Assembly (NCBI GenBank): GCA_032718475.1
Contig: JAUCBJ010003066.1
Location: 2,476 to 66,475, forward strand
DNA: 64,000 nucleotides
Source of the DNA: Nemertoderma westbladi
Taxonomy: Eukaryota > Animalia > Xenacoelomorpha
Direction: 5' to 3'
Part shown: positions 10,951 through 53,359 of the stretch, one piece after another
Position numbering within the stretch: the first letter of the stretch is position 1
Layout: each line of letters opens with the position of its first letter
Notes under the pieces: generated by a model
The model's database searches: none
The model's input: the letters and a program-made list of their open reading frames with translations, nothing else
Told to the model about the DNA's origin: nothing
Made by a program: the position numbers and the translations under genes

Positions 10951-12018
10951 GGAAGTGTTGATGGTATCAATAATAATAATAATAATAAGAAAAAAATTAT
11001 AAGAAAAATAAAAATTGGGCACCAAGTCCGACCAAAACTCCGGAATAAACGGCGTTTAATTATTGGACTTATTGCATTTGTGTTAGTGGCGACGGCAGCT
11101 GGTGTAATCGGTTGGTTTCTGGGAAATCAAGACAATAAAAATAATTTAGGGGTACCAACATCCACAGCCCCAAATACTACCGGCAATGTTACTACTGGTT
11201 GGGCGAGCAACACTGTTAGAGTCGATATGGACAATACGCTCACTCCCCCTCCCTTTACTTATCTTAATACTTTCCCTTCCACTACTCCCCTTCCCATTAC
11301 TCCCGCCCCCACTACTCCCACTCCAACTACTCCCCCTTCCAATCCCACAACCCCCCCTCCTACTACTCCCATTCCCACTGCTCCCACTCCCACTACTCCC
11401 CCTAGTACAACCACATTGTCCAATGATGATATATTATATAGGAAGTTTATCAACTGCGATACAAGTGTGACAGAATGTCTACCATATGCTCATTCTGATA
11501 CATGCGATAACCGAGCCGAGCAATATACCACCAAAGCTAAAGTCAGTGGTCTACATAATCTAAATACTAAGGGCAAGAAACTGAGATGCGATGGAGGTTG
11601 GGTCCTATTTTATAGACGCATCGCCAACAGTAACAGCTACTTTTGGTATAAAAATAAAGATTTCGCAAATGGATTCGGAGATTCAGATAAATCTTACTTT
11701 CTCGGCGTGTATAGTATCTACGTGCTGACACGATATAAAAATTGTTTCTTAAAGATCAACTTTGACAAATCGTCGAGAATCTACAGCAACTTTACAGTGT
11801 CGGGGCCTCCGAGCTATTATCTAATGATTACAAATTATACATATTCACATCCGACCGGTGTATTTGCTGATGGAACTTACGATCTCTCTGCCCTAAATAA
11901 CTCTAAGTTTAGACAAAGAAACTATGGATGGTGGACTGGGGGTGGAGGTACTCACCCAAATGAATGGAACCCTAAATCTCAAACATTAGAAATAAAACTG
12001 AAATGCTTGGTAACCTAA
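10951..12018 (+). CDS. Terminal exon of a type II membrane protein: TM helix, Pro/Thr mucin-like stalk, C-terminal fibrinogen-related domain (FReD)
   Basis: Frame is open from acceptor ctttag|GGA at 10951. Basic RNKRR, then hydrophobic LIIGLIAFVLVATAAGVIGWFLG, a PTT-rich stalk, and FReD motifs CDGGWVLFYRR, DFANGFGD, YFLG, YSNFTV, YGWW, LEIKLK. The start codon or upstream exon was not identified. Confidence 0.75.
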   Translation, partial: GSVDGINNNNNNKKKIIRKIKIGHQVRPKLRNKRRLIIGLIAFVLVATAAGVIGWFLGNQDNKNNLGVPTSTAPNTTGNVTTGWASNTVRVDMDNTLTPPPFTYLNTFPSTTPLPITPAPTTPTPTTPPSNPTTPPPTTPIPTAPTPTTPPSTTTLSNDDILYRKFINCDTSVTECLPYAHSDTCDNRAEQYTTKAKVSGLHNLNTKGKKLRCDGGWVLFYRRIANSNSYFWYKNKDFANGFGDSDKSYFLGVYSIYVLTRYKNCFLKINFDKSSRIYSNFTVSGPPSYYLMITNYTYSHPTGVFADGTYDLSALNNSKFRQRNYGWWTGGGGTHPNEWNPKSQTLEIKLKCLVT

Positions 12019-15000
12019 GTCTGATAATACATTAGAGATGAAACTGAAATGCTTGGTAACCTAAGTCTGATGATACATTAGAGATGAAACTGAAATGCTT
12101 GGTAACCTAAGTCTGATGATACATTAGAGATGAAACTGAAATGCTTGGTAACCTAAGTCTGATGATACATTAGAGATGAAACTGAAATGCTTGGTAACCT
12201 AAGTCTGATGATACATTAGAGATGAAACTGAAATGCCTGGTAACCTAAGTCTGATGATACATTAGAGATGAAACTGAAATGCTTGGTAACCTATGTCTGA
12301 TGATACATTAGAGATGAAACTGAAATGCCTGGTAACCTAAGTCTGATGATACATTAGAGATGAAACTGAAATGCCTGGTAACCTAAGTCTGATGATACAT
12401 TAGAGATGAAACTGAAATGCCTGGTAACCTAAGTCTGATGATACATTAGAGATGAAACTGAAATGCTTGGTAACCTATGTCTGATGATACATTAGAGATG
12501 AAACTGAAATGCTTGGTAACCTAAGTCTGATGATACATTAGAGATGAAACTGAAATGCTTGGTAACCTATGTCTGATGATACATTAGAGATGAAACTGAA
12601 ATGCTTGGTAACCTATGTCTGATGATACATTAGAGATGAAACTGAAATGCTTGGTAACCTATGTCTGATGATACATTAGAGATGAAACTGAAATGCCTGG
12701 TAACCTAAGTCTGATGATACATTAGAGATGAAACTGAAATGCTTGGTAACCTAAGTCTGATGATACATTATAGATGAAACTGAAATGCTTGGTAACCTAA
12801 ATCTGATAATATATTAGAGATGAAACTGAAATGCTTGGTAACCTAAGTCTGATGATACATTAGAGATGAAACTGAAATGCTTGGTAACCTAAGTCTGATG
12901 ATACATTATAGATGAAACTGAAATGCTTGGTAACCTAAGTCTGATAATATATTAGAGATGAAACTGAAATGCTTGGTAACCTATGTCTGATGATACATTA
13001 GAGATGAAACTGAAATGCTTGGTAACCTAAGTCTGATGATACATTAGAGATGAAACTGAAATGCTTGGTAACCTATGTCTGATGATACATTAGAGATGAA
13101 ACTGAAATGCCTGGTAACCTAAGTCTGATGATACATTATAGATGAAACTGAAATGCTTGGTAACCTAAATCTGATAATATATTAGAGATGAAACTGAAAT
13201 GCTTGGTAACCTAAGTCTGATGATACATTATAGATGAAACTGAAATGCTTGGTAACCTAAGTCTGATAATATATTAGAGATGAAACTGAAATGCTTGGTA
13301 ACCTATGTCTGATGATACATTAGAGATGAAACTGAAATGCTTGGTAACCTAAGTCTGATGATACATTAGAGATGAAACTGAAATGCTTGGTAACCTAAGT
13401 CTGATGATACATTATAGATGAAACTGAAATGCTTGGTAACCTAAATCTGATAATATATTAGAGATGAAACTGAAATGCTTGGTAACCTAAGTCTGATGAT
13501 ACATTAGAGATGAAACTGAAATGCTTGGTAACCTAAGTCTGATGATACATTATAGATGAAACTGAAATGCTTGGTAACCTAAGTCTGATAATATATTAGA
13601 GATGAAACTGAAATGCTTGGTAACCTATGTCTGATGATACATTAGAGATGAAACTGAAATGCTTGGTAACCTAAGTCTGATGATACATTAGAGATGAAAC
13701 TGAAATGCTTGGTAACCTAAGTCTGATGATACATTAGAGATGAAACTGAAATGCTTGGTAACCTATGTCTGATGATACATTAGAGATGAAACTGAAATGC
13801 TTGGTAACCTAAGTCTGATGATACATTAGAGATGAAACTGAAATGCTTGGTAACCTAAGTCTGATAATACATTAGAGATGAAACTGAAATGCTTGGTAAC
13901 CTAAGTCTGATGATACATTAGAGATGAAACTGAAATGCTTGGTAACCTATGTCTGATGATACATTAGAGATGAAACTGAAATGCTTGGTAACCTAAGTCT
14001 GATGATACATTAGAGATGAAACTGAAATGCTTGGTAACCTAAGTCTGATGATACATTAGAGATGAAACTGAAATGCTTGGTAACCTAAGTCTGATGATAC
14101 ATTAGAGATGAAACTGAAATGCTTGGTAACCTAAGTCTGATGATACATTAGAGATGAAACTGAAATGCTTGGTAACCTAAGTCTGATGATACATTAGAGA
14201 TGAAACTGAAATGCTTGGTAACCTATGTCTGATGATACATTAGAGATGAAACTGAAATGCCTGGTAACCTAAGTCTGATGATACATTATAGATGAAACTG
14301 AAATGCTTGGTAACCTAAGTCTGATAATATATTAGAGATGAAACTGAAATGCTTGGTAACCTATGTCTGATGATACATTAGAGATGAAACTGAAATGCTT
14401 GGTAACCTAAGTCTGATGATACATTAGAGATGAAACTGAAATGCTTGGTAACCTAAGTCTGATGATACATTATAGATGAAACTGAAATGCTTGGTAACCT
14501 AAATCTGATAATATATTAGAGATGAAACTGAAATGCTTGGTAACCTAAGTCTGATGATACATTAGAGATGAAACTGAAATGCTTGGTAACCTAAGTCTGA
14601 TGATACATTATAGATGAAACTGAAATGCTTGGTAACCTAAGTCTGATAATATATTAGAGATGAAACTGAAATGCTTGGTAACCTAAGTCTGATGATACAT
14701 TATAGATGAAACTGAAATGCTTGGTAACCTAAATCTGATAATATATTAGAGATGAAACTGAAATGCTTGGTAACCTAAGTCTGATGATACATTAGAGATG
14801 AAACTGAAATGCTTGGTAACCTAAGTCTGATGATACATTATAGATGAAACTGAAATGCTTGGTAACCTAAATCTGATAATATATTAGAGATGAAACTGAA
14901 ATGCTTGGTAACCTAAGTCTGATGATACATTATAGATGAAACTGAAATGCTTGGTAACCTAAGTCTGATAATATATTAGAGATGAAACTGAAATGCTTGG

Positions 15001-53250: not shown

Positions 53251-53359
53251 CGAGCGCTTATTGTGTGGGAAAGTTGGGAGGCATTAGAGGAGGCCAAGGA
53301 AAAACAAACAGAAAATCGACAGGAATTGAAACAGAAAAAATTTGACAAAAAATTAAAAG
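53242..53359 (+). CDS. XPA: XPA exon 4
   Basis: ttctcaatag|[42 protein letters not shown] (cf. [20 protein letters not shown]...[10 protein letters not shown]); 118 nt; donor G|GTTAGA. Confidence 0.93.

Follow-up and report, generated by a model that had tools for sequence, protein, structure and literature searches.

The stretch analysed here, 64,000 nt of the contig JAUCBJ010003066.1 from Nemertoderma westbladi (hereafter the window), contains two neighbouring genes, POLR3C and XPA, in each of which the 3′ splice site (acceptor) of one intron, together with the start of the following exon, is present as a long tandem array ending at the functional site. These arrays are quite probably very large minisatellites of the mirage type, a kind of boundary-spanning repeat described in lancelets; in POLR3C the last copy is used, likely as the only one that precedes a full exon. 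A third gene, FReD, carries an array at its stop codon.

Eight kilobase-scale arrays were called with Tandem Repeats Finder in the 64-kb window, where they occupy 44.1 kb (69%). Three of them straddle a coding boundary, namely those of POLR3C, XPA and FReD, and lie where an earlier note, made from the sequence alone, had placed them; all three are head-to-tail minisatellites with periods of 38/43, 27 and 46 nt, respectively. The other five are intronic, intergenic or ambiguous. The gene names are upheld by Pfam, as seven of the 11 scanned pieces scored above the family cut-off from single exons. In a word comparison of the arrays in the window no 12-mer was found to be common to any two of them, and the only two 11-mers shared by two arrays (one word on both strands) connect the 46-mer of FReD and an intergenic 38-mer.

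POLR3C is located on the minus strand. Its exons 1–4 (40363-40622, 39860-40224, 39221-39663 and 38966-39126) are supported by RNA joints, Pfam and the reading frame, and the last exon, exon 5 (17997..18309), follows the true CAG acceptor, as supported by the RNA join. The five exons code for a protein of 513 aa without internal stops possessing the HTH_9, RNA_pol_Rpc82, POLR3C_WHD and RPC3_helical domains, and an AATAAA is found about 125 nt after the stop. The introns are 138, 196, 94 and 20,656 nt long, the last of which (18310-38965) harbors the 38/43-nt array (18290..38935, minus strand; 18304-38931 according to Tandem Repeats Finder) with a unit consisting of the intron end and the exon start. 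There are 509 units including the functional one, and the AG is kept in 423 of them; the units end in TAG (419), CAG (4), TAC (84) or otherwise (2), the CAG units being the true site and three decoys less than 800 nt away from it. Apart from the true site, the array thus offers 422 AG-bearing decoys. The first of these is only 59 nt from the exon 4 donor, so the intron free of the array would be about 59 nt long.

At 28 of the 29 positions scored, the internal units are 97–100% conserved, and the functional copy differs from them in its CAG and in a different exon head, only one decoy matching the true site over positions −24 to +20; the array has therefore undergone concerted evolution inside with the boundary copy left out. 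It includes higher-order blocks, ordered unit variants and a 1,858-nt stretch that is repeated exactly within it. The 7-nt word CATTGTT is present in both the intron and the exon at a spacing of exactly one 38-nt unit, which fits the microhomology seed proposed in the earlier note. If a decoy were used, a stop would follow after a median of 25 codons by computation, and the reading frame remains open for just one of the 422 decoys, which lies 81 nt upstream of the true site and would add 27 residues. Selection against the decoy AG is unsupported, since the 84 units with AG changed to AC are clustered in the middle of the array, where they were probably spread by block duplication.

The stretch was present in five out of eight sequencing runs, and contigs of four runs could be placed on 38860-42290. 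X4 and X5, coming from two samples and two studies, are RNA-derived, as their joints fall exactly at the predicted GT-AG introns; X1 and X2 show no joints. X2 comes from a different sample and study than X1, which may itself be the sample from which the window was sequenced, and shares one sample, S2, with X5. These run data are contigs, in which rare isoforms are dropped and alleles are unphased. In both RNA runs the exon 4 donor at 38966 runs straight into the unique exon 5 without an added base, the join bypassing all 422 AG-bearing decoys and using the last acceptor. Regular splicing of POLR3C is accordingly kept at the level of contigs that drop rare forms, and in sample S2 a high-depth array (77-fold in X2) is found together with the correct join (X5).

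The read depth check covered the POLR3C array only. In X1 two unitigs of the repeat reach depths of 7992 and 1136 where the single-copy flank has 27.2 (294-fold and 42-fold), and the corresponding 31-letter words occur 291–369 and 34–38 times in the window. As these depth ratios match the word counts, contig depth suggests that the assembled array length is about right in X1, and that the POLR3C unit copies of X1 are accounted for by this one locus. The latter, along with the lack of relatedness between the three units, agrees with the earlier proposal that the arrays arose locally and independently. In X2 the array depth is 476 against 6.16 for the flank (77-fold), about a quarter of the X1 ratio, which reflects either a shorter allele, i.e. 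polymorphism, or library bias.

XPA lies on the plus strand. Coding exons 1–3 (41392-41609, 41979-42236 and 43895-44054) are based on the RNA joint of exons 1 and 2, Pfam and the frame, the RNA contigs containing this joint and a loose end into exon 3. A 240-nt leftover of the X5 contig fits several readings, as does the point where the X4 contig stops, 4 nt past exon 3, and neither was used. Exon 4 (53242..53359), assigned by frame and homology, ends at a donor after KKFDKKLK-G, and several database XPA models break at the same point. Together, exons 1–4 code for 251 residues without stops, including the XPA_N and XPA_C domains. The 27-nt array (47697..53251, plus strand; 47725-53251 according to Tandem Repeats Finder) occupies the end of intron 3 and comprises 191 units including the functional one, 180 of which have the AG and 137 an AG followed at once by GT. 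None of the 179 AG-bearing decoys stays open, with a computed median of eight codons to the stop. The likeness of the units to the functional copy climbs slightly towards the exon, from about 21 to 23 of 26 matches, and the 5′ edge of the array is decayed, so that the seed is unreadable.

The third boundary array belongs to FReD, whose predicted last coding exon (10951..12018, plus strand, stop at 12016-12018) codes for a hydrophobic segment, a Pro/Thr-rich stalk and a Fibrinogen_C domain found by Pfam. The exon start is preceded by an acceptor-like ctttag, and the exon upstream of this site was not located. The 46-nt array (11983..16191, plus strand) has 91 units, the first of which consists of the last 11 codons and the stop, and TAA stands at the stop position in 72 of them. 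The description given in the earlier note thus holds for all three genes: the POLR3C and XPA units are those introns' own acceptors and exon starts, with boundary units contiguous with the functional copies, the FReD unit is the last codons plus stop, and the frames (513 aa of POLR3C, XPA exons 1–4 and FReD) are intact. What was concluded from it fares less uniformly. The choice of one true site among hundreds of decoys is supported for splicing at POLR3C in both RNA runs, but it does not extend to the 3′-end machinery at FReD. The ribosome terminates at the first TAA. AATAAA is present in one of the 91 FReD units (11991), the functional one, where it lies inside the coding sequence, the next being at 16349, past the array. 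Since the first stop ends translation and AATAAA is limited to the functional unit, the FReD copies are not processing decoys and the array is no test of 3′-end formation. A distal partial copy (16167-16200) shares 23 nt with the unit and reads TLEMKLKCLK* into the flank, an alternative C-terminus, so either array end may be the ancestral one; with the 23-nt overhang the microhomology is unreadable. As the unit spans a stop codon and not a splice site, the FReD array resembles the mirages as a mutational event but is not one of them.

The suggestion that arrays of this kind form an undescribed system has to be given up. Mirages are tandem duplications of the intron 3′ end and the exon start reported in the lancelet globin genes BflGb6 and BflGb9 and earlier in lancelet Adh3 with units of 10–72 bp (Canestro et al. 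2002, as cited), which leave splicing undisturbed and are unstable in length (PMC3087553); they are also known in lancelet troponin C and PGBD5 (PMC3902484). The anatomy is the same in both genes of the window, since the unit spans the exon-intron boundary and is contiguous with the authentic one, established by RNA for POLR3C and by frame and homology for XPA. As in lancelets, many but not all units keep the splice signals (423 of 509 in POLR3C and 180 of 191 in XPA), several loci are affected in one genome, the boundary copy stays outside homogenisation, and normal splicing is kept, in our case at POLR3C. Length instability between alleles would be consistent with the depth ratios (about 294-fold for X1, about 77-fold for X2), given polymorphism and not library bias as their cause. 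The difference is one of scale, as BflGb6 has three and six units compared to 509 and 191 here (20.6 and 5.5 kb).

Human boundary-spanning variable number tandem repeats (VNTRs), in which one monomer likewise spans the exon-intron boundary, include those of F7 intron 7 (37 bp), IFI6/6-16 intron 2, CBS intron 13, LMNB2 and PDGF intron 4, where donor sites are repeated as 4–25 pseudo-sites and the first copy is used (PMC1557585). There splicing takes the exon-contiguous copy, either by itself or along with its nearest neighbours, and POLR3C also uses the exon-contiguous copy; unlike the human donors, it is acceptors that are repeated here, by the hundreds, with the last copy used, as demonstrated for POLR3C. 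Tandem dual-specific AGGT sites are known from human UBC, where their stochastic use alters the protein (PMC10809524). Similar tandem AG/GT words are found in the XPA 27-mer (137 of 191 units) and in a 34-mer further downstream, but every XPA decoy leads to a stop, and the POLR3C units read AG/AG and hence have no AGGT site. Intron gain by tandem duplication across AG/GT (the Rogers model, Zhuo 2007, Gao and Lynch 2009, all as cited in PMC3087553) resembles the present case in the tandem duplication of a sequence bearing splice signals, with the difference that the arrays lengthen existing introns and no new intron is seen. No acceptor array with hundreds of copies was found in the literature searched, which did not cover most subscription papers; the arrays are notable for their scale, the mirage kind itself being already known.

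The formation of the two splice-site arrays can be envisaged as follows. The region expands minisatellites freely, as evidenced by its eight arrays making up 69% of the window, and a duplication crossing a boundary would have served as the seed, in POLR3C presumably by slippage or repair between the two CATTGTT words. Unequal exchange or conversion would then lengthen and homogenise the array, for which the blocks and the 1,858-nt repeat speak in POLR3C. Duplications lying entirely within exons would be purged, and those spanning a boundary would survive provided that the exon-contiguous copy is used; this anchored copy being undeletable, the arrays may shrink but not vanish. Last exons are defined in linkage with the poly(A) site. 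Exon definition, or in the case of POLR3C such poly(A)-linked last-exon definition, would account for the choice of the terminal copy observed in the POLR3C RNA. The decoys of POLR3C and XPA hold only 10–20 nt of exon. In neither array does any GT match the U1 consensus at seven or more of nine positions, as six of the eight real donors do; the short exon piece and the lack of a good downstream donor are probably why the terminal copy is picked. U2AF and U2 are brought to an acceptor by a donor downstream of it or by an exonic enhancer (PMC8724738). Stray decoy products with the early stops computed above would be removed by nonsense-mediated decay (NMD). In FReD the same kind of mutation would have struck a stop codon, harmlessly, as translation ends at the first stop. 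Special machinery beyond exon definition, for splicing or otherwise, is not implied, contrary to what the earlier note drew from the arrays.

Several points weigh against this explanation. Genes with short introns are often thought to use intron definition; the other POLR3C introns are 94–196 nt long, and under such definition the first decoy, at 59 nt, might be preferred. The RNA joins cover POLR3C and XPA exons 1 and 2, with the XPA exon 3–4 junction resting on frame and homology, minor decoy use may be hidden as RNA contigs drop rare isoforms, and an array-free allele may exist in S2 or S3. In classic experiments with duplicated sites the proximal copy was favoured, with conflicting results (PMC1557585). 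The placement of the arrays is another such point. If every array is reduced to a single unit and seeds are distributed uniformly outside wholly coding positions, 0.24 boundary arrays are expected in the whole window and 0.66 in its array-bearing part, compared to three observed, and the probability of three or more out of eight is 0.0013 and 0.022, respectively. The test is post hoc, the window having been picked from a very large scan and the stop counted as a boundary afterwards, so the local enrichment is a modest hint only. The position of the POLR3C array is unremarkable, because a 38-nt seed in a 59-nt intron touches a splice site with a probability of 0.65 (0.32 for the acceptor). This geometry fails in XPA, whose collapsed intron 3 is about 1.8 kb with a probability of about 0.01 for the acceptor, and of just two splice-site arrays both involve an acceptor and neither a donor.

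These placement figures are also what would be expected if 3′ splice sites and gene ends were mutational hotspots seeding amplification, e.g. through transcription pausing or R-loops, in which case a genome-wide excess should exist. The recurrence of lancelet mirages in several genes (PMC3087553, PMC3902484) can be added in its favour. However, the window was selected and the test is post hoc, five of the eight arrays have no shown boundary, donors are among the lancelet and human cases (PMC3087553, PMC1557585), and survival and anchoring would produce enrichment without any seeding bias, which makes the hotspots doubtful. The same doubt applies to the wider notion that 3′ splice sites are preferred minisatellite seeds in the lineage and that a compact-intron spliceosome ignores more than 400 acceptors over 20 kb in a near-perfect manner even without NMD. 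If it were true, such loci would represent a natural, genome-wide and allele-variable test of exon definition in a short-intron invertebrate, as well as a route from 60-nt to 20-kb introns on which the ignored decoys include one recreating the ancestral 59-nt intron. The XPA array could also be removed by recursive, or ratchet, splicing, with a decoy AG/GT regenerating a CAG/GTTCGG donor until the last copy is reached. Apart from the AG/GT in 137 of 191 units, the regenerated donor has, by inspection, six of nine matches to U1, within the range of five to seven of the real donors of the locus, and human UBC makes use of tandem dual-specific AGGT sites (PMC10809524). At POLR3C, where the units read AG/AG and no base is added in the join, recursive splicing is ruled out, and for XPA it is read from DNA letters, with no intermediate in the RNA contigs, so we regard it as unlikely.

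POLR3C is essential in the eukaryotes studied. This, together with the intact frame, makes it very unlikely that alleles with long arrays are mis-spliced and functionally weak and that the correct mRNA comes from a short allele. The X2 array depth of about a quarter of that in X1 indicates that short alleles may exist, and the contigs are unphased, but the depth in X1 corresponds to some 500 units in the haploid genome, most simply explained by two long alleles. Hardly credible at all is an over-expansion of one or a few junction copies during assembly: the POLR3C array contains exact internal repeats as long as 1,858 nt, which would invite it, and the support for the array is contig depth from a sample (X1) that may be the window's source, yet the X1 depth ratios of two unit variants match the assembled counts, the independent sample in X2 is also at about 77-fold, and the units carry ordered variants and higher-order blocks.

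Taken as very large mirage-type minisatellites, the POLR3C and XPA arrays have copy numbers one to two orders of magnitude above the published counts compared, within a class of repeats that is known but has received little study. POLR3C amounts to a natural experiment, in which an intron of about 59 nt in an essential gene for an RNA polymerase III subunit has been enlarged to 20.6 kb by decoy acceptors and splicing still goes to the final copy, with a bearing on exon versus intron definition in animals with short introns and on intron growth. Its fidelity deserves measuring, because the proximal copy was favoured in older experiments and intron definition is often assumed for short-intron genes. 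New machinery is not revealed by these arrays, and they serve as a warning that gene predictors and short-read assemblies will mishandle such loci.

POLR3C and XPA are arranged head to head about 770 bp apart (40622-41392), and RNA coverage spans this gap in X4. In the X4 RNA 40969 is connected to both 41214 and 41256 by minor GT-AG joints, which suggests introns in the XPA 5′ untranslated region. In POLR3C intron 2 the region 39754-39786 is loosely matched by X1 and X2 DNA contigs running into TTAGGG-like letters and is probably a dispersed repeat. A word-based protein search, in itself weak evidence, gave no match at E 0.001 or better for FReD, POLR3C exon 3 or XPA exon 3, and of 307 metagenomic candidates for POLR3C exon 5 none was confirmed. 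HMMER gave 319 matches for XPA; identity did not exceed 70% in any of the 150 listed, the best single-domain matches among these being at no more than 70% over 53 aa. Of ten such matches that were traced to their sources, the nine with a name all belong to unrelated animals, and this, like the FReD gene, points to an animal as the origin of the window.

The remaining five arrays were used for comparison. A 38-nt array (16445..17632, no strand assigned) lies between FReD and POLR3C, away from any coding boundary. A 22-nt array (42263..43839, plus strand; 42295-43839 according to Tandem Repeats Finder) is entirely within XPA intron 2 and a 23-nt array (44778..46631, plus strand) entirely within intron 3, which also contains a GC-rich 77-nt repeat at 47000-47290 with palindromic ends, by eye resembling a miniature inverted-repeat transposable element. 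The conserved last exon of XPA was not found in the window with a hidden Markov model of the homologue C-terminus and a phase-aware scan. For this reason, a 34-nt array (54666..60277, plus strand), with AG/GT in every one of its 165 detected units and no exon shown adjoining, and a 31-nt array (60502..64000, no strand assigned), which continues past the window end, are probably located in XPA intron 4; this intron is probably longer than 10 kb and would hold both of them and a retroelement remnant (53360-64000). With no last exon in the window, neither is supported as a fourth junction array at that exon. One variant of the 34-mer has 12 nt in common with the acceptor of XPA intron 2 (43882-43893), which may be due to chance, and joining XPA exon 4 to the last 34-mer copy gives a short open tail, GSVTPEPELVH*, unlike the homologues.

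On the minus strand the 31-mer (60435-64000) has a branch-point-like CTAAC and CCCAAG/G, and its last copy enters a 23-codon frame with no Pfam match; it could be a fourth junction array belonging to a neighbouring gene. At 53639-54461 (minus strand) there are broken, frameshifted reverse-transcriptase-like frames with a DFADD motif, which we take to resemble an RTE-type non-long-terminal-repeat element. A stretch of about 95 nt is present in inverted orientation at about 7110-7200 and 9710-9810, and by eye 7200-7500 resembles a long palindrome; both are probably transposon remnants.

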